In this document: piece after piece, positions 2,811 through 32,838 of the stretch
How the letters are laid out: every line of letters begins with the position of its first letter
Position numbering within the stretch: position 1 is the first letter of the stretch
Origin: Gammaproteobacteria bacterium
GTDB lineage: Bacteria > Pseudomonadota > Gammaproteobacteria > UBA4575
Reading direction: 5' to 3'
Length of the DNA: 64,000 nt
Assembly (NCBI GenBank): GCA_965262455.1
Contig: CBDHFH010000003.1
Coordinates: 94,360-158,359, forward strand
Made by a program: the position numbers and the translations under genes
Notes under the pieces: generated by a model
What the model saw: the letters and a program-made list of their open reading frames with translations, nothing else
The model's database searches: none
What the model was told of the DNA's origin: nothing

Positions 2811-3263
2811 TCATGGCAAATAGTCGCTCGCCTCTAGAGTCTCAGTTTTCTTTCGTTTAATAATATCTGACTGCATAGCATTGAGCTGTTGGCATTTCTT
2901 TACATGCGGACGCAATGCTGCAATAAATTTTTCAACGTCTTCATTTAACTTTAACTGATTGCGATATTCATCAAGATAAGTTGTAAAAATTTCATTCACA
3001 ACTTGTTCTTGGTAGTTCCCTGCTTTAGCAAATTCTAATGCCACAATTCTTGCATCGAGTGAAGCATGATGAAGTTCATGCTGATAAAACGCTTGTTCAG
3101 ACTCGCTTAATATATTTGCCATAACATTCAATACCGCCTCACACTTAGCATATTTATTTACTTGCGCGTAATAGTCAAACCCTTCCGCAGATGCTGGATT
3201 GACAATTAAACACAGCAACACATAACAAATACATGCGCATATATGCGTTTTAATGATGTTCAT
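2811..3263 (-). CDS. Hypothetical small secreted protein
   Basis: ORF with internal start MNIIKTHICACICYVLLCLIVNPASA (signal peptide). No recognisable domain. Confidence 0.45.
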   Translation of the reverse strand: MNIIKTHICACICYVLLCLIVNPASAEGFDYYAQVNKYAKCEAVLNVMANILSESEQAFYQHELHHASLDARIVALEFAKAGNYQEQVVNEIFTTYLDEYRNQLKLNEDVEKFIAALRPHVKKCQQLNAMQSDIIKRKKTETLEASDYLP

Positions 3264-3516
3264 TTTGCAATAACAATAAAGCATGTGTGATGAAAAATTT
3301 TCATTTGCCTGATTAAGCTTAATGTTATCTCGGGAATATTTCCACTTGTCGGGGATAAGCGGTCAAGTGCGTGCAATACGTTAACTCAAGCACATTTTTA
3401 TGAGCGCGGATCACAATAATAACTTTGTAAGCAAAGCTATTAGCCCTCGCTAAATACCGAACATGATGTGCCGATAGTTTTCGTAGCAGAAGAAGAATAA
3501 CAAGGAGGTCCGCATT

Positions 3517-4128
3517 ATGTTTCGACGATTAATACTATGCAGTATTTTGGCAATCACCAGCGTGCATGCAAATGATTGCGATACCAATCTTACTTGCGGC
3601 AAGTGCGACAGGAAGTCTCAATTTGCCTGGAATCCTGATGACGCTTATGTCACTAGTGAGTTGTCTTACTTTTATCAATTGCCTGAGCTCATAGAAAGTC
3701 ATTATCAACATGGTCATTTTAATAAAGCAGCAAAATACGCAAATGACTATCTTAACCTTGCTACCGCTTACCGATGCAACTGGAATCATGGTAACGCCAT
3801 ACATGATGCAAACCGATATTTAGGCTTAATCAGCCTCAGACAAAATAATATAGAAAAAGCAGCCGCACATTTAATTCGCGCGAGTCAAACACCAGGTTCA
3901 ATGCAGCTTGAAGCTTTTGGCCCTGAACTTGATTTAGCTAACGACTTACTAAAAAGGGGCAAGCGTGATGCAGTCATTACATACCTCGAGAATATGGATA
4001 GTATCTGGGATAATGACCAGCAAATTAATAAATGGATTAGCAAGATAGAAGCAGGTCAAAAACCATTCTTACAGCGTCCTAGCGAAGCACAAATACAACA
4101 GCGATTCGCGGCAAAAAATATTTTCTAA
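3517..4128 (+). CDS. Hypothetical secreted protein
   Basis: 203 aa with N-terminal signal peptide (MFRRLILCSILAITSVHA). RBS aaggagg 7 nt upstream. No recognisable domain. Confidence 0.5.
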   Translation: MFRRLILCSILAITSVHANDCDTNLTCGKCDRKSQFAWNPDDAYVTSELSYFYQLPELIESHYQHGHFNKAAKYANDYLNLATAYRCNWNHGNAIHDANRYLGLISLRQNNIEKAAAHLIRASQTPGSMQLEAFGPELDLANDLLKRGKRDAVITYLENMDSIWDNDQQINKWISKIEAGQKPFLQRPSEAQIQQRFAAKNIF

Positions 4129-4282
4129 TTGCGTTAACCCTATCCATCCATGTCACCGCATGCCTTAGTCATGCAGTGACATGACTCACTTAAAGCACTA
4201 CGTGCGCGATTCGCACATGCGACGTTGAAAACTCTTCTAATGACATTACTCTCTTGGCAAATAACTAACGAGAGAGACTGCC

Positions 4283-4981
4283 ATGACAAATACACTCAAA
4301 TCTATCCTATTTTTTACGTTCCTGTTTGCAAGCTCACATAGCTATAGCGCAAATATCAATCCTGGTGATCTACTTGTTAGCGAAGTGATGAGTAACCCTG
4401 CACAAGTCTCGGACACAGCGGGCGAATGGTTTGAGATTTTCAATGCCTCAGCTAACATCATTGACCTTGACGGAATTACTATTAGCGACAATGGTAGCAA
4501 TGCTCATGAAATAGATAATGGTGGAAGTTTGTTGATAGACCCTGGCACTTATCTTGTCCTGGGTAGAAATGCGGACATGAGTCAAAACGGAGGTTACCTG
4601 GCAGATTATGTTTACAGTAACTTCACTCTTGGTAACAGCCAGGATCAAATTATTCTTAGCAGAGACAATATAGAAATAGCTCGCCTAGACTATTCAGGTG
4701 CAGCATTCGGTGTTGCGGGTGTCAGTTCTGAATTAATAGCACAAACTCTCATGCCAACCATTTCTGACTACATGCTCACTGAAAACTTTATTTATGGCTT
4801 AGGGGACATAGGCACACCGGGTGGCCCGGGATCATTTGCTTTGACAAGTGCAAGCCCTGTGCCTATCCCTGGTGCAATTTGGTTTTTAATGTCTGGTGTG
4901 CTGTTACTTGCGCGATCCACAAAGTTTCGTAACAGCTCAGCCTGCAACAAAATCAATCCAATTAGAGAATATAGTTGCTGA
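4283..4981 (+). CDS. Lamin-tail-domain (LTD) protein with PEP-CTERM-like C-terminal sorting signal
   Basis: Signal peptide; LTD-like segment LLVSEVMSNPAQVSDTAGEWFEIFNASANIIDLDGITISDNG. C-terminus PVPIPGAIWFLMSGVLLLARSTKFR resembles PEP-CTERM (Pro-rich motif, TM helix, basic tail). 45-bp convergent overlap with the next gene. Confidence 0.6.
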   Translation: MTNTLKSILFFTFLFASSHSYSANINPGDLLVSEVMSNPAQVSDTAGEWFEIFNASANIIDLDGITISDNGSNAHEIDNGGSLLIDPGTYLVLGRNADMSQNGGYLADYVYSNFTLGNSQDQIILSRDNIEIARLDYSGAAFGVAGVSSELIAQTLMPTISDYMLTENFIYGLGDIGTPGGPGSFALTSASPVPIPGAIWFLMSGVLLLARSTKFRNSSACNKINPIREYSC

Positions 4982-5941
4982 AGAATTTTTCCAGGGATTT
5001 CCAATATACTGTCTGAGTTCTTGTTCAGGAAAATCTTCAAGCAATGAGCGCTTATCAGCTAGCTGATCCAACTGTGTCTGTTCTAATAGTGTTTTATAAT
5101 CAGAAATAAACTTCATTGCATTCTGGTCGAAATAATTGACAGGCACAGGGGGGTAGCTCTCTAACTCACCGAAAATATAACGCATAATTTCACGCTTATA
5201 TTCTTTTAGCAAACTGATGTCATCGTATTCTGGATGACCTTGAAAATATACGATACTCATATCACGCTCGGCGGCTAATTGTACGCCCACCTGGGAACTG
5301 TTAATCAATGTATCAATATTATGCTTAACTAATAACTCTTCAGGAATATCATTAAATCTCGAATGACACATATCTATTTGTTTCTGCACCCGATCAACCA
5401 ATAGATGTTGCTGGCTTACTACTTGGTGCTTGAACACTCCCCAACACTTCTCTCCCAAATGTTGGCGATCAATGTCATAAAAAACCTTTACTGCCGCATG
5501 AGTTGCCAGACATGAACACAGTGTTGAGCGAATATTATTTTTTGCCCATGTAAGTACTTCAACCAACTGTGGCCAGAATAATTCATTCTGCAACACTGGC
5601 TGCGATACATTTGCGCCAGTAATAATTAGCGCATCGACATCATGTGTTTTTAGCGTTGCAAAATCGACATAGTATTCATCAATATAGGTTTGTGCTTGCG
5701 CTGATCGCTCAACACCTTGGATAGTAAATGGGTAAAAAAAACAATTCACATTGTCGTTCGCACCCACCAAACGCAAAAATTGACGCTCTGTTGCAGAAAT
5801 TGCAGCATCAGGCATCATATTTAAAAAGCCTATCTTTATACTCGCAAGCGATGTATCCAATTCACCTGATGCACAGACGTCCACACCTTCTGTGCGAACA
5901 CGCTCAATACTTGGCAGATTATTATGTTGTACTAAAGGCAA
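4937..5941 (-). CDS. metA: Homoserine O-acyltransferase, MetA/HTS family (divergent, ~25 aa longer than E. coli MetA)
   Basis: Aligns along E. coli MetA: FLRLV, IITGANV, catalytic Cys context STLCSCLATHAA, GHPEYD, C-terminal FSNW. Start is 17 nt downstream of the preceding P-loop gene stop. Confidence 0.7.
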   Translation of the reverse strand: MPLVQHNNLPSIERVRTEGVDVCASGELDTSLASIKIGFLNMMPDAAISATERQFLRLVGANDNVNCFFYPFTIQGVERSAQAQTYIDEYYVDFATLKTHDVDALIITGANVSQPVLQNELFWPQLVEVLTWAKNNIRSTLCSCLATHAAVKVFYDIDRQHLGEKCWGVFKHQVVSQQHLLVDRVQKQIDMCHSRFNDIPEELLVKHNIDTLINSSQVGVQLAAERDMSIVYFQGHPEYDDISLLKEYKREIMRYIFGELESYPPVPVNYFDQNAMKFISDYKTLLEQTQLDQLADKRSLLEDFPEQELRQYIGNPWKNSSATIFSNWIDFVAG

Positions 5942-5957
5942 AATAACATTGCAGTAT

Positions 5958-6806
5958 TTAACTGCGATCGAGTGCTTGGCTGATTAAGTCAATAAAGTCT
6001 TTTTCATCACGAACATTTTGCACATCATGCAAACTGACCGTATAACCATACTTATCTGCGATTGATTCGTATAATGGCTTGCGATGCTCCAGCAATCTAG
6101 GAAACACCCAACTACCAAATTCATCTGGTACAATTTCTTCAGCGGATGATATATTTTTTTCTTCAAGAAACATCTGCAAATGCTCATCAAGAAATGCTTC
6201 CTGAAAGTAAAGCGGTTTTGGATGGGTGACTGCACGCTCACACAGGGTTTGCTCATGCTCATCATCAGCACGAATGTATAGTATTAATGTATGCTCCGAT
6301 AGCACTTCATATACTTGCGGCTCATCTAACTCACACAAACTTCCACCTGCGTCATTGAGGAAGTTAGGATAACCGTAAATATTTTTTGCCTTACTAATAA
6401 ACTCTGGCACATCAAGCATGGCATATATTTCTGCCTGGCGATGTAAGAACTGACGACGCTTAAACTCCTGTAACTCCAAGCCTCCCAACTCTTCATTACC
6501 TACCTTGCCAAGAAAAGTTGATACCGGATCCAAATTATTGACAGTAATGTTACTGCAAATATAAATGGAGTCTGTTCTTAACAAGTCTGCCAAAAAATCA
6601 ATTTTCATTGCTTTGGCTTTAATATTATCGAGTATGGGTTCCTCCAAGTACTTAGTGCCTATTCGATAGTCCCCAGAATAATGAAACCATTGTTTTCTAT
6701 CTAATTTATTCGCCAGCGTAGTTTTACCGACACCCGACATGCCCAACAAAGTAATTGCTTTATTTGGCAGCGATTTTAATTGTTTAGATGAGAGTTTCAT
6801 GGTCAT
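5958..6806 (-). CDS. P-loop NTPase of unknown function (Walker A GMSGVGKTT), kinase-like
   Basis: 282 aa; Walker A LLGMSGVGKTTLANKL near N-terminus. Tightly linked upstream of the metA-like gene (same strand, 16-bp gap). Confidence 0.55.
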   Translation of the reverse strand: MTMKLSSKQLKSLPNKAITLLGMSGVGKTTLANKLDRKQWFHYSGDYRIGTKYLEEPILDNIKAKAMKIDFLADLLRTDSIYICSNITVNNLDPVSTFLGKVGNEELGGLELQEFKRRQFLHRQAEIYAMLDVPEFISKAKNIYGYPNFLNDAGGSLCELDEPQVYEVLSEHTLILYIRADDEHEQTLCERAVTHPKPLYFQEAFLDEHLQMFLEEKNISSAEEIVPDEFGSWVFPRLLEHRKPLYESIADKYGYTVSLHDVQNVRDEKDFIDLISQALDRS

Positions 6807-7026
6807 GCCCAGTGTTGATAGCCCGGCAATAGTATCAGTTTAGTTAAGAATTAAAAGAACTAGTTAACTAGCTCTTTTATGCATTCAAATCATTCAAAAG
6901 CATTTAGTCGCGTCAAGCAGTAGTCTCAGCTTTATTTTTGAAACATTTAATACGCAATAAAAAACTACCGAAAAGCTCAGCATATATGCCTACTCTTAAG
7001 CCTTTTGAGATGTATTCAATAAAATG

Positions 7027-10000
7027 TCAGAGCGCATCAGGGCTTGCTTTATTGAAAATTCGATCATATGTAACCCGTCTAACATCATCCAACACCATAT
7101 AGAAACACGGAACCACAATTAATATAAGCACCGTTGCAAATATCAAACCAAATCCCAGACTCACTGCCATCGGTGACAAAAACGCTGTTTGTCCGCTAGC
7201 AAAAAATATTAGTGGCGAAATGCCCAAGAACGTTGTGATGGTGGTGAGTAATATCGGGCGAATTCTAACTCTGCCTGCATCTACTACCGCTTCAAAACAG
7301 GCAAATCCTTGTGCCCGACGTTTTTTAGCAAAATCGACTAATATCAGTGAGTCATTGACTACAATCCCGGTTAATGCCAGAAAGCCAATCATTGACAAAA
7401 ATTGCAGGTTATAGTCAAAAATCATATGCCCTATCACCACGCCGACAATTGCAAAAGGAATGGCTAGCATTATCACAAATGGATCTAACAGAGACTTGAA
7501 TAATGCAGCTAAAATAAAAAATATTATTGCCAGTGATATTATCAACACGTTAAACATATCATTAAAAGAATCATTTGCTTCTTTTTTTTCGCCTAAAAAT
7601 AACAATTGGTTCTCGCTTGACTCATGCATTAAGTCAGAAAATTCTAGTGCGATTAGATCATTCACTTCCAGCGGTGTTGTGGTCTCTAAATTAACCTCAG
7701 CAGTAACGACCGCCAACCTCTGTGCATCTCGCCGTAATATTGTTCCGAGCCCACGGCCCAACACAATATCTGCCACTTCACCTAAATACACTGTTCTACC
7801 ATCCACAAGCGTGATCGGAAGGTTTTCTAAACTACTGCTGTTTTTTCTCAACGCGTCTGGATAAATAACACGAACTGGATAACGATCTTCCACCCAATTA
7901 ACGTGCGTTACCTCCAAGCCAACAAACCCAGTACGCACGGCATTTGACAGTTCTGCTTGCGTGAGTCCTAAATTGCGTCCCCGCTCATTAAGCGTATATT
8001 GATATTCCAGCTTGCCGGGCTCTAAATCTTGTCTAACGTCTCTCACTCCAGGCACGCGCTTTAGAAAATTATTAATTTTCCCGGAATCTTCAATTAAGCT
8101 ATCAATATCCTCACCCACAACACCCACTTCAATATCTGCACCGGAGGGTCCACCTTGAGGGCGCAAAATTGAAAAACGCTGAATGCCAGTGATAGATTCA
8201 ATTTCGCTTCGTATTTCATCAATTATGTCTTCGGTATTACGCGTGCGTGTACCCTCACTACGGAATTTAAGATTTACAATAGGTGATATATATTTTTCAA
8301 TTAATGAGTTAGGCGCGGGCTTCTCTAAATCAATAATAAACTGGATATAATGGCTGCCTAGTTTGAGTCGATTGAAATCTACCAGTATCACACCTACATT
8401 AGTCAACATACTTTTTAATTCATCTTGCTGAATAACATAAGTAATTTTCTGTTCAATTTGCTTGGCCAGCTTAGTGGAGTCTTCAACGCTATAAGTATTG
8501 GGCGTTTCGACATTAATAAGAAATTGACCTATCTCGACGTTGCCAAATTGATTGTAAGGTAGTCGCGTCTGAGCGTAAGTCAAAATAATTGATAACACTG
8601 CAATAGTCATCACCGAGACGATATATCGATTACTCAGCGCCCAACGCAATATCGATACATATTTCTCCAATGCCGGCTTCCAGAACTTGCTTTCTTTACG
8701 CGGTTTTTTATCAATGCGTAAAAATTCTGCTGAATGAGAAGGAAGGATTAAGAAAGCTTCAATCAATGAACCAACCAGAGCAGCACTCACAACCACCGGG
8801 ATGACTTCTATAAATTTTCCTAACGTACCGCTGACTCCAAACATAGGCATAAAGGCAGCCACGGTAGTGCACGTCGATGCAACCACCGGCCAAAAAACTT
8901 CTTTGCCTCCAATCATGGCGGCTTGCTCGCGGGGCACACCCGCTTCCATGTGGCGGTAAACATTTTCCGTCACGATGATTGCATCATCTACAATCATTCC
9001 CAGCGCAATTAAAAACGCAAACAATGAGATCATGTTTATGGTGTAGCCAAGATAATGAATCAATATTATTGCGACCAAAAATGAAACCGGTATGCCTAAT
9101 GCGGTAATAAACGCGACACGAAAATTCAAGAATATATAAAGAGAAATCAGCACTAACACCAGGCCAACAATGCCCGAAGACATAACGGTTTCTAAGCGAT
9201 TTTTTACATACACAGACAAGTCACTAAATAACCCCGCCCGCATACCAACAGGCAATCTATCTTGTAACTTCGCGGTATAGCCTTTGACTTCATCGGCCAC
9301 ATCAATAGTTGAAGCACGTGCTGTTTTCGTGACGGTTAAGTTGACAGAGGGCTGGCCATTAAATCGTCCGATTGTCTCGGCTTCTTCCAAGCGCAAATCT
9401 ACAGTGGCAATTTCAGAGAGTAGTAACTGCCCACCGCCGCTAGTGCCACGCAACACTAACTCGCCCACTGCCTCTACATTCGGTGCGACACCCATACCAC
9501 GCAGGAGAATGTCGCCTTCAGCAGCTTGCAGTGATCCGCCCGGCAAATCTTGCAAGTTTTGCGTCAGCGTTGTTTGCACTTCATTTAGCGATACCTTGCG
9601 TGCGGCCATTTCATGAGGGTCCACTATCACCCAGAGTTCCCACTCTTGATCCCCGGCAATACCGACACTTGCTACACCGGGTAACCCAAGCAAATCTCTA
9701 CGAACATCTTCAGCTGTTTGATATAAAATCCCCGGCTCAGTATCACCATATAAAGTGACACTTATGACTGGGAAGCGCGTCTTTAAACGGCTAATTTCAG
9801 GGGTTTCTGCTTCAAGGGGGAGATCATCAATTGAATCCACTACTGAGCGCACTTCTCTGAGGAAATCATCAACATCGACATCTGTTTTTAATTTTATTTC
9901 TATTTTTGAAATACCCTCCGAGCTCTCAGAGGTTACTACGTCAACATCTGGCAATGTTTCAATTTCTTCTTCTATGATGATTGTGATTTGTTTTTCAATT

Positions 10001-10173
10001 TCTTCTGGCGGCGCCCCTTCATATTCCGTTACAATACGAACTAAATCCAAATCAACAATAGGAAACATTTCTTGGGGCATACTGCGCCATGAAAGAACAC
10101 CGGCAATAATAATCACCAATAGCAGTAGATTAACTATTAACGAATTACGAATTGAAAACTGAACAATACCCAT
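7027..10173 (-). CDS. RND family multidrug efflux transporter, inner-membrane permease (AcrB/HAE1-like)
   Basis: 1048 aa, 12-TM RND architecture, typical AcrB-like N-terminus MGIVQFSIRNSLIVNLLLLVIIIAG and large periplasmic loops. Confidence 0.9.
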   Translation of the reverse strand: MGIVQFSIRNSLIVNLLLLVIIIAGVLSWRSMPQEMFPIVDLDLVRIVTEYEGAPPEEIEKQITIIIEEEIETLPDVDVVTSESSEGISKIEIKLKTDVDVDDFLREVRSVVDSIDDLPLEAETPEISRLKTRFPVISVTLYGDTEPGILYQTAEDVRRDLLGLPGVASVGIAGDQEWELWVIVDPHEMAARKVSLNEVQTTLTQNLQDLPGGSLQAAEGDILLRGMGVAPNVEAVGELVLRGTSGGGQLLLSEIATVDLRLEEAETIGRFNGQPSVNLTVTKTARASTIDVADEVKGYTAKLQDRLPVGMRAGLFSDLSVYVKNRLETVMSSGIVGLVLVLISLYIFLNFRVAFITALGIPVSFLVAIILIHYLGYTINMISLFAFLIALGMIVDDAIIVTENVYRHMEAGVPREQAAMIGGKEVFWPVVASTCTTVAAFMPMFGVSGTLGKFIEVIPVVVSAALVGSLIEAFLILPSHSAEFLRIDKKPRKESKFWKPALEKYVSILRWALSNRYIVSVMTIAVLSIILTYAQTRLPYNQFGNVEIGQFLINVETPNTYSVEDSTKLAKQIEQKITYVIQQDELKSMLTNVGVILVDFNRLKLGSHYIQFIIDLEKPAPNSLIEKYISPIVNLKFRSEGTRTRNTEDIIDEIRSEIESITGIQRFSILRPQGGPSGADIEVGVVGEDIDSLIEDSGKINNFLKRVPGVRDVRQDLEPGKLEYQYTLNERGRNLGLTQAELSNAVRTGFVGLEVTHVNWVEDRYPVRVIYPDALRKNSSSLENLPITLVDGRTVYLGEVADIVLGRGLGTILRRDAQRLAVVTAEVNLETTTPLEVNDLIALEFSDLMHESSENQLLFLGEKKEANDSFNDMFNVLIISLAIIFFILAALFKSLLDPFVIMLAIPFAIVGVVIGHMIFDYNLQFLSMIGFLALTGIVVNDSLILVDFAKKRRAQGFACFEAVVDAGRVRIRPILLTTITTFLGISPLIFFASGQTAFLSPMAVSLGFGLIFATVLILIVVPCFYMVLDDVRRVTYDRIFNKASPDAL

Positions 10174-10181
10174 ATATTTAA

Positions 10182-11375
10182 TTATTCAGTAATGACGCGT
10201 TGCTGATCACTTAATGAGTTAACATCGCGTGCAACAATTTTTTGCCCCTCAATAATTCCATCCAACACAACGACTTCATTATCTATACGCCGACCTAGCT
10301 GGACTGGAATTTTTTTAATCATGTTGGTTTCATAAGCAAATACATATGATTTACCAAACTGATTTAATACAGATGAAATTGGAATAACTGCAGACTGCCC
10401 CTGCACAGCTAATGGCATATATACGCTTGCCAGCATTCCGGACTGCACATGTGCACTTGGCACTCTGACTCTTACTTGGTGAGTATTGGTATCCACATCA
10501 GGATCAAGCTGTATTGCCACGACATCACCTTTGGTTTGTAAGCCATTAATGCCTACATCGACTGTTTGACCGAGTGCTAGGCTGGAAATAACTTCACCCC
10601 TCACATCTAGTTGCACATCAAACTGGCTGGCATCAACCAACGTAAGAGCAATATCGTTAGCATTGACATAATCACCCTCCTCCAAAAACACTTCATTCAC
10701 TACCCCTTGAAATGGAGCACTTAAGGTTGCCCGCTCAAGATTACGTTTTGCCAAATCACGTTGCGCTTGCTTCATTGTCACACGTGCATTATTGGTTGCG
10801 ACAGAATATTCAAGACGCGCCACTTCAGCCTGCAAATCAAATACTCTTTGCCGTGTACTATCTAACTGTGATTGTGCAATAAGGTTACGCTCAACTAATT
10901 TTTCTAAGCGCAAGACTTCTTGCTGTTGTAACTTTAAATTATTTTGTGCATAGCCAAGTAAGCTTTTATCTCGACTCACGCCTTTTTGCTCTATGACTAA
11001 TTCTGCTGCCGCTTGTTGAAACTGATCTTGATAATCTGAATCATCTAGTTTCATCAACATTGCACCCTGATCAACTACAGTTCCAGGCTCTATCTTTCTA
11101 GACACCATAATGCCTGCCACTTCGAAACGAATTTGCGCCGTCTTAATGGGTTGTAATCGACCAGTGACAGTTTCAAAAGGCTGCACCATACGTTTTTCAA
11201 CGCTGACAAGAGCGACTTTAACTGGCGCTAGTTGTTGCAGTGTCGCTTGAGGTTGTGGTTTGGTTGCTATCAGTAACCATACTATTATAGTGGTTATGAC
11301 GGCGATGCCTGCAATAATGACAACAATTGGCAAAACAGCACCTTTGTGCCGTTTATGCTTTATAATCGTATCCAT
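10182..11375 (-). CDS. RND efflux membrane fusion protein (periplasmic adaptor, HlyD/AcrA family)
   Basis: 397 aa; N-terminal TM anchor, coiled-coil region (QQEVLRLEKLVERNLIAQSQLD), beta-barrel/lipoyl-like domains. 8 bp upstream of the RND permease. Confidence 0.85.
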   Translation of the reverse strand: MDTIIKHKRHKGAVLPIVVIIAGIAVITTIIVWLLIATKPQPQATLQQLAPVKVALVSVEKRMVQPFETVTGRLQPIKTAQIRFEVAGIMVSRKIEPGTVVDQGAMLMKLDDSDYQDQFQQAAAELVIEQKGVSRDKSLLGYAQNNLKLQQQEVLRLEKLVERNLIAQSQLDSTRQRVFDLQAEVARLEYSVATNNARVTMKQAQRDLAKRNLERATLSAPFQGVVNEVFLEEGDYVNANDIALTLVDASQFDVQLDVRGEVISSLALGQTVDVGINGLQTKGDVVAIQLDPDVDTNTHQVRVRVPSAHVQSGMLASVYMPLAVQGQSAVIPISSVLNQFGKSYVFAYETNMIKKIPVQLGRRIDNEVVVLDGIIEGQKIVARDVNSLSDQQRVITE

Positions 11376-32629: not shown

Positions 32630-32838
32630 AACTAATCTCTAGCGCCTCTGCGATATGCGTGAGCTTGTCGTTAAATCCCTTGAGCCTATTTACAAACCCC
32701 GGGATTGCTCGTTAAAAGATAGTGTGCATACCTGCTTCGACAGGGAGCCTTAAATCTCTTACAGTGAACCCACTTGAACCTTTGGTTCAAGGTCAACGGC
32801 TCATGCCACGGTACTCATGGAGTGCGCTTTTCCCATCT
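32630..32838 (+). ncRNA. ssrS: 6S RNA (SsrS), RNA-polymerase sigma70-holoenzyme-binding regulatory RNA
   Basis: Starts just after the zapA stop. Strong primary-sequence similarity to E. coli 6S: CCCUUGAGCCUAUUUACAAACC matches CCCUGAGCCGAUAUUUCAUACC, and GGAGCCUUAAAUCUCUUACAGUGAACCCACUUGAACCUUUGGUUCAAGG matches GAAGCCUUAAAACUGCGACGACACAUUCACCUUGAACCAAGGGUUCAAGG. The terminal segments (CUCUAGCGCC... / ...CUCAUGGAGUGCGC) can pair to close the central-bubble structure. Confidence 0.8.

Follow-up and report, generated by a model that had tools for sequence, protein, structure and literature searches.

A shikimate-kinase-like protein family encoded beside metA as a candidate homoserine kinase of Gammaproteobacteria

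A stretch of 64,000 nucleotides from a gammaproteobacterial genome (assembly GCA_965262455.1, contig CBDHFH010000003.1, positions 94,360 to 158,359; hereafter the window) carries a two-gene operon at the homoserine branch point, in which a P-loop kinase gene of an unnamed family stands upstream of metA. The kinase is proposed to belong to a new, enlarged shikimate-kinase-like family of homoserine kinases that replaces ThrB in many Gammaproteobacteria, a reading to which we give about an even chance of being correct. Methylococcales, Chromatiales and Thiotrichales-like lineages are among the carriers of this candidate ThrB replacement. The proposal draws on the fold of the protein, the conservation of its catalytic residues, its pairing with MetA, its placement beside thrA-thrC in other genomes and its affinity to a Desulfovibrio homoserine kinase, and would make homoserine the substrate and threonine synthesis the physiological role. 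The positions given below are those of the window.

5958 to 6806, minus strand: P-loop, shikimate-kinase-like kinase gene of an unnamed family, candidate homoserine kinase; 282 amino acids (aa) from the ATG, probably 280 aa from the ATG at 6800
4937 to 5941, minus strand: metA, homoserine O-succinyltransferase of the long subtype, 334 aa from a TTG start; PF04204, NF003776
5942 to 5957, minus strand: spacer of 16 base pairs (bp) from the kinase stop to the metA TTG, without a clear Shine-Dalgarno sequence

A first-pass annotation, made from the letters alone, had called these two minus-strand open reading frames (ORFs) of 282 and 334 aa, 16 bp apart, and their coordinates were confirmed. As the database orthologues of the kinase are 280 aa long, its start is probably the second ATG.

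The kinase, its MetA partner and their genomic contexts

No Pfam or NCBIfam model was passed by the kinase at its cutoff, and only matches at the level of the Walker A motif were obtained among 18,950 NCBIfam models. This motif (GMSGVGKTT, residues 22–30) was named as the sole recognisable feature of the protein at first pass, and outside it no model was matched above cutoff. The family is large yet compact. More than 8000 homologues were found, none of them with a Pfam domain, and clustering at 50% gave 800 representatives, 205 of which had E-values of 1e-30 or below. The family occurs in at least 582 species genomes under the database names “ATPase”, “hypothetical protein” and “shikimate kinase”, the last of which is used by IMG and UniProt. 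No earlier description of it was found in literature searches.

An AlphaFold2 model built from 33 sequences reached a predicted local distance difference test score (pLDDT) of 84.5 and a predicted template modelling score of 0.83. Its top structural match was the shikimate kinase fold, of the P-loop nucleoside-monophosphate-kinase type, which bears out the first impression of a small-molecule-kinase-like partner and is one of the folds that the first-pass annotation had marked for checking. All features of this fold are present, namely Walker A, Asp34, the GGG loop, the lid and the C-terminal Arg. The protein is enlarged by about 110 residues relative to shikimate kinase, with a substrate-binding domain rebuilt with about 60 extra residues and a C-terminal extension. 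Profile alignment to E. coli AroK gave the following equivalences.

Kinase K28/T29: AroK K15/S16
Kinase S44: AroK D32 (the Mg-site Asp32)
Kinase D46: AroK D34
Kinase EFKxRQ: AroK GFRDRE region
Kinase NDAGGS: AroK GGG loop
Kinase PKPLY: AroK lid KRPLL
Kinase R242xPxY: AroK RNPLY

Residues S24, G27, K28, D46, E126, D152, G155, S156, K197, P198, R242 and G254 were invariant in an alignment of 40 family members that extends to 29% identity. This set comprises the whole catalytic set and two family-specific acidic residues, E126 and D152. Judged from these residues, the protein is predicted to transfer phosphate to the hydroxyl of a small molecule that also bears a carboxylate.

Some members and segments of the family deserve separate mention. 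Residues 79–95 (DSIYICSNITVNNLDPV) are near-invariant in the close family, yet they form the only long stretch with a pLDDT below 50, and may be a lid or interface that becomes ordered upon binding. In the divergent members P0192 (363 aa) and P0218 (365 aa), the C-terminus is extended by about 80 aa, and in P0218 this extension matches an Xre-type helix-turn-helix (HTH_3, HTH_31). Their arrangement recalls regulators that combine a helix-turn-helix with a shikimate kinase domain, and NF006015 was matched by four of the 40 members. Two apparent fusions of kinase and HTS domains, P0228 and P0275, are frameshifted calls across adjacent kinase and metA genes on GC-rich metagenome contigs; they were rejected because out-of-frame GC-rich junk separates the two parts, and such pseudo-fusions are a pitfall for Rosetta-stone inference. 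An 863-aa “fusion” ORF in locus L020 was likewise rejected as an out-of-frame artefact of ORF calling in GC-rich DNA.

MetA is by homology an ordinary homoserine O-succinyltransferase, the enzyme of the first step to methionine, and the novelty of the locus resides in the kinase. It passed the NCBIfam equivalog NF003776 with 371.4 bits (cutoff 358) and matched the Pfam family HTS (PF04204) with an E-value of 3e-71 and 240 bits (cutoff 27). In phmmer alignments to the structures 7cbe and 6mtg, the nucleophile Cys context STLCSC aligned with STLFVC of E. coli, while the His/Glu context GHPEYD was identical to that of E. coli MetA, whose triad is C142, H235 and E237; the catalytic contexts noticed at first pass are thus kept. 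MetA of the window has Ser where E. coli has G111, a position at which Glu marks the acetyl-type MetA. The TTG start gives the N-terminus MPLVQHNNLPS, in agreement with the family, and an identical 334-aa protein is already on record, as are relatives under the name homoserine O-succinyltransferase. Its orthologues in free-living prototrophs, among them Methylococcus capsulatus Bath (AAU91863.1), are annotated as MetA, and the window protein is shorter than the orthologues of methanotrophs (334 vs 354–358 aa). No second metA lies within the window.

The first-pass annotation had treated this MetA as aberrant, with an insertion of about 25 aa and a possible role in acylating another hydroxy-amino acid or in secondary-metabolite or cofactor synthesis. 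The insertion is real, but it measures about 40 aa (residues 275–315, near the C-terminus) and is a hallmark of the 353-position model NF003776, and therefore a subfamily trait rather than a peculiarity of the window gene. The remainder was not supported, as the protein passes the equivalog cutoff with its triad intact, its orthologues are MetA of prototrophs, its neighbours are housekeeping genes and the kinase also pairs with canonical O-acetyl-type MetA. There is no sign of a secondary-metabolite role for MetA.

The neighbourhood of the kinase was surveyed in 80 species-representative genome loci and, independently, in 80 metagenome loci seeded from divergent kinase members. A co-oriented metA followed the kinase gene directly in 54 of the 80 species loci, and MetA was downstream in 51 of the 80 metagenome loci, or in 51 of 65 when only metagenome loci with at least 1 kilobase (kb) of room are counted. 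The pair was thus present in about 105 of the 160 loci sampled, which span many orders, and the reverse start from MetA relatives recovered the same upstream kinase gene. The flanks of the pair were wholly different between lineages, with MetA as the sole strongly recurrent neighbour. Short gaps of about 4–60 bp were also found in the orthologous pairs, and the 16-bp spacer of the window is consistent with co-transcription. The kinase is better conserved than its partner, with 91 vs 70% identity to the closest species and about 62 vs 44% to Methylococcales.

Among the most divergent pairs were nine whose MetA partner was just 23–29% identical to the window MetA. Three of these nine were scanned and proved to be short MetA proteins nearest to the O-acetyl type; two passed the NF047918 cutoff of 460.5 bits (472 and 461 bits) and the third missed it narrowly (442 bits). 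As the kinase pairs with both succinyl and acetyl MetA, the link follows homoserine acylation rather than one structural subtype. The operon called at first pass stands and is conserved, and the pair is not confined to the window genome. That the adjacency is fortuitous and the two functions unrelated has in its favour the general fact that neighbouring genes can be unrelated; it is refuted by the retention of the pair in about 105 independent loci of many orders, by the unrelated flanks and by the two MetA subtypes, and we attach next to no probability to it. One further arrangement was seen at locus L096 (ENA ERZ25039470 contig_38365, 3196–6927), where the divergent member P0141, 47% identical to the window kinase, follows metG after 2 bp in the order metK-metG-kinase.

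A second context was found in 12 loci without MetA, where a kinase orthologue 55–62% identical to that of the window adjoins the gene for the bifunctional aspartokinase-homoserine dehydrogenase (ThrA). In nine of the 12, threonine synthase (TIGR00260, 225–237 bits, cutoff 167) follows about 0–25 bp after ThrA with no thrB between them. E. coli thrB sits exactly between thrA and thrC, whereas the kinase gene is divergent from thrA-thrC, not between them, and is mostly coupled to metA. At loci L166 and L168, where transcription is divergent, the kinase start lies 132–138 bp from thrA; the ThrA proteins of these two loci are just 41–42% identical to those of the other loci, and the arrangement therefore occurs in more than one lineage. 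No match for E. coli ThrB was found in 175 loci or in the window. Taken together, the contexts link the kinase to the homoserine-producing enzyme, to one consumer of homoserine and to the prospective user of O-phosphohomoserine.

The block of thrC-thrA divergent to the kinase recurred in L028, L033, L046, L098, L127, L149, L159, L166 and L168, in high-GC and low-GC lineages. It continues with a small methyltransferase or alpha/beta-hydrolase (from a reading of N-terminal sequence), behind which lies a family III CoA-transferase (PF02515). In L017 (4864–5934), L033 (4972–5979) and their relatives, a gene of 335–383 aa with an HNH_2 match lies between thrA and the kinase; it weakly resembles a phosphorothioated-DNA-binding restriction endonuclease and appears to have been inserted into the divergent intergenic region.

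Upstream region and surroundings of the operon

6828 to 6841, minus strand: conserved block AAACTGATACTATT = AAACTGnTACTATT, about 23 nucleotides 5' of the first ATG of the kinase, from cross-genome comparison
6860 to 6871, no strand: perfect 12-bp palindrome CTAGTTAACTAG, 5' of the kinase gene, from the sequence
7027 to 11375, minus strand: resistance-nodulation-division (RND) efflux pump (1048 aa) and membrane-fusion partner (397 aa), directly upstream of the kinase-metA operon
4283 to 4981, plus strand: convergent 232-aa ORF, sharing 45 bp with the 3' end of metA
32642 to 32828, plus strand: 6S/SsrS RNA, full-length RF00013 match, 77.4 bits (gathering score 46.4)

The block at 6828–6841 was the only one kept across the upstream regions of the window and six related genomes. 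It is likely an extended -10 element (TG-n-TACTAT) and, judged from its sequence, the putative promoter of the operon, although a generic promoter scan pointed elsewhere (TTGACG/AATGAT at 6916–6889). The palindrome was considered as an operator and rejected, since it is not kept in relatives; it is probably without function. A hairpin at 5951–5965, considered as an attenuator or terminator, was rejected as weak and at chance level (2 found vs 1.9 expected). No S-adenosylmethionine (SAM) riboswitch or any other Rfam family was found upstream of the kinase, either with the window at the gathering threshold or with 6700–7150 at E-values up to 1, and no tandem MetJ box was found in the whole window with up to three mismatches allowed. 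Both results agree with the first inspection of the upstream region, which had seen neither element.

The only Rfam family in the window at the gathering threshold was the 6S RNA. Other genes of the window are of the housekeeping kind and comprise an H+-pyrophosphatase-like gene, LptD-SurA-PdxA, ThyA, TrpD, PurC, PurK and a UbiH-family hydroxylase, and no biosynthetic cluster was present among the neighbours of kinase and metA. Synteny with the RND efflux pair was kept throughout the clade of the window (L010, L013, L089–L093) and not beyond it. The C-terminus of the convergent 232-aa ORF (VPIPGAIWFLMSGVLLLARSTKFR) resembles a PEP-CTERM-type sorting signal on inspection of the sequence.

Candidate substrates and rival readings

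The best NCBIfam match of the window kinase was NF040667 (hom_kin_desulfo), the shikimate-kinase-like homoserine kinase of Desulfovibrio. The match is weak but systematic, since this model was matched by 24 of the 40 diverse family members with a best E-value of 3.4e-6, while shikimate kinase models were matched by two (two models, one member each) and any other family by at most six. By this model comparison the kinase falls outside NF040667, yet NF040667 is its nearest described relative. DvMF_0971, the founder of the NF040667 group, complemented an E. coli thrB mutant (PMC5764234). The two families share a P-loop kinase of the shikimate kinase lineage and the proposed reaction, and the Desulfovibrio kinase is a precedent for this fold replacing ThrB. 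They differ in size (163 model positions vs about 280 aa, which include a large rebuilt substrate domain and an extension at the C-terminus), in taxa (Desulfovibrio vs Gammaproteobacteria) and in the metA or thrA-thrC context of the window family. Canonical ThrB, of the GHMP type, and the Pseudomonas/Neisseria type, of the phosphotransferase family, have the same proposed reaction and pathway position but are unrelated to the kinase family in fold and sequence.

Homoserine kinase is also a missing step in a carrier of the family. A homoserine kinase gap in the methane-oxidising M. capsulatus has been noted since the genome paper of 2004, leaving a step without an assigned gene, and threonine synthesis in work on the iMcBath model still proceeds via the reaction HSK_GAPFILLING (PMC11594979). 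In GapMind, 29 of 148 prototrophs had thrB rated at low confidence, 14 of them without any candidate (PMC7311316). For M. capsulatus it lists one confirmed low-confidence step and no medium one, and which step this is, is not specified per methanotroph. Genomes of vesicomyid clam symbionts were reported without thrB (PMC2642828). Its absence is also reported for Ruthia, Vesicomyosocius, Phaeobacter inhibens and Dinoroseobacter shibae.

As a homoserine kinase, the protein would phosphorylate the gamma-hydroxyl of L-homoserine with ATP and yield O-phospho-L-homoserine, the substrate of threonine synthase, and would be a non-orthologous replacement of ThrB. The residues can be assigned roles by analogy with shikimate kinase. 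K28 and T29 of Walker A would bind ATP-Mg, D46 would contact or activate the substrate hydroxyl, the loop G154-G155-S156 and R242, possibly with R118, would grip the carboxylate of the substrate, and K197 of the lid segment PKPLY would close on the phosphates. More speculatively, E126 and D152 could bind the alpha-amino group of homoserine, which shikimate lacks. The “alternative activated-homoserine route” of the first-pass annotation comes closest to this reading, in that the kinase most likely makes O-phosphohomoserine, the other activated form of homoserine; its product would probably serve threonine.

Several points weigh against a plain homoserine kinase. Most genomes couple the gene to metA rather than to thrC or hom, and close co-expression of enzymes of the threonine and methionine branches is unusual. 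The metK-metG-kinase arrangement, although seen once, favours methionine over threonine. The match to NF040667 is weak, with 23.5 bits against a cutoff of 197, and covers model positions 2–55, that is, the N-terminal 55 residues or so. The conserved residues alone cannot separate the substrates, as shikimate too has a carboxylate and a hydroxyl. In M. capsulatus the kinase orthologue is WP_017365453, and its gene is paired with metA; for the Bath strain the presence of the kinase is deduced from the species cluster and from AAU91863.1. Methylomicrobium alcaliphilum 20Z is without a low-confidence step in GapMind, and its pair-carrying genus may also have some thrB candidate.

The coupling to metA can also be read as a sign that the kinase is a dedicated partner of the MetA step or the methionine branch, either as an accessory or regulatory subunit or as a metabolite sensor that controls MetA activity or stability, with a chemistry not directed at the O-phosphohomoserine of threonine. 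We consider this possible but rather unlikely. A parallel is offered by MetX-MetW, where a homoserine O-acetyltransferase is co-transcribed with a small accessory protein. Both systems join a homoserine-activating acyltransferase to a smaller co-transcribed protein of unclear role; MetX is not homologous to MetA, however, MetW is methyltransferase-like and not a P-loop kinase, and the kinase gene differs in lying upstream of metA and in keeping a full catalytic site. The dominance of MetA among the neighbours, the invariable order of kinase then metA and the tiny gaps would suit stoichiometric co-expression. The persistence of the pairing across two MetA subfamilies, the divergent member after metK and metG and the stronger conservation of the kinase than of MetA fit a partner role as well, as does the strictly conserved segment 79–95, since low model confidence is often seen for an interface or lid. 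The C-terminal helix-turn-helix of two divergent members suggests ligand sensing in some lineages. On the other hand, MetA is missing within 6 kb in about one quarter of the loci with room, where the same orthologue adjoins thrA-thrC; the invariant catalytic set favours a real enzyme over a scaffold, and the MetA route has no known phosphorylated intermediate.

An improbable variant would combine both branches, with kinase and homoserine acyltransferase as a physically coupled branch-point module that partitions homoserine between threonine and methionine, or with O-phosphohomoserine fed to methionine synthesis as in plants and the segment 79–95 as the MetA interface. Such a module would account for the placement beside metA and after metK-metG better than an enzyme of threonine synthesis alone, and, if true, would give the aspartate-family pathway a new regulatory architecture.

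Equally doubtful is that the kinase acts on another carboxylate-bearing alcohol, as a shikimate kinase isozyme or a kinase of an unidentified metabolite, with the metA link due to co-regulation. Its closest structures are shikimate kinases, it retains the carboxylate-binding Arg and a GGG-like loop, and some sources name it shikimate kinase. Shikimate kinase models (NF010552, NF003456 and others) were, however, not passed, with 13.5 bits for NF010552 (cutoff 186) and 12 for AroK (cutoff 195), Pfam SKI gave no match at E-values up to 1, and E. coli AroK failed to detect the family (tblastn, E-values up to 1e-4). Identity to AroK/AroL is 16–22%, the Mg-site Asp32 of AroK is replaced by Ser and the lid Arg by Lys, and the kinase has about 110 additional residues and a rebuilt substrate-binding domain. 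No aro gene (e.g., aroB) was among the recurrent neighbours in the 160 loci. GapMind furthermore rates the chorismate steps of M. capsulatus all as high confidence (0 medium, 1 low), and a canonical shikimate kinase is therefore already there.

Meaning for the Gammaproteobacteria

Should the homoserine kinase reading be true, it would give the correct gene assignment for this step in several hundred species, industrial methanotrophs among them. A function would be assigned to proteins that at present go by “ATPase”, “hypothetical” or “shikimate kinase”, and false predictions of threonine auxotrophy would be removed. The kinase would also be a target for aspartate-family engineering in methanotrophs, with threonine, methionine, ectoine and lysine as products, and the shikimate kinase fold would have been recruited for homoserine a second time, independently.

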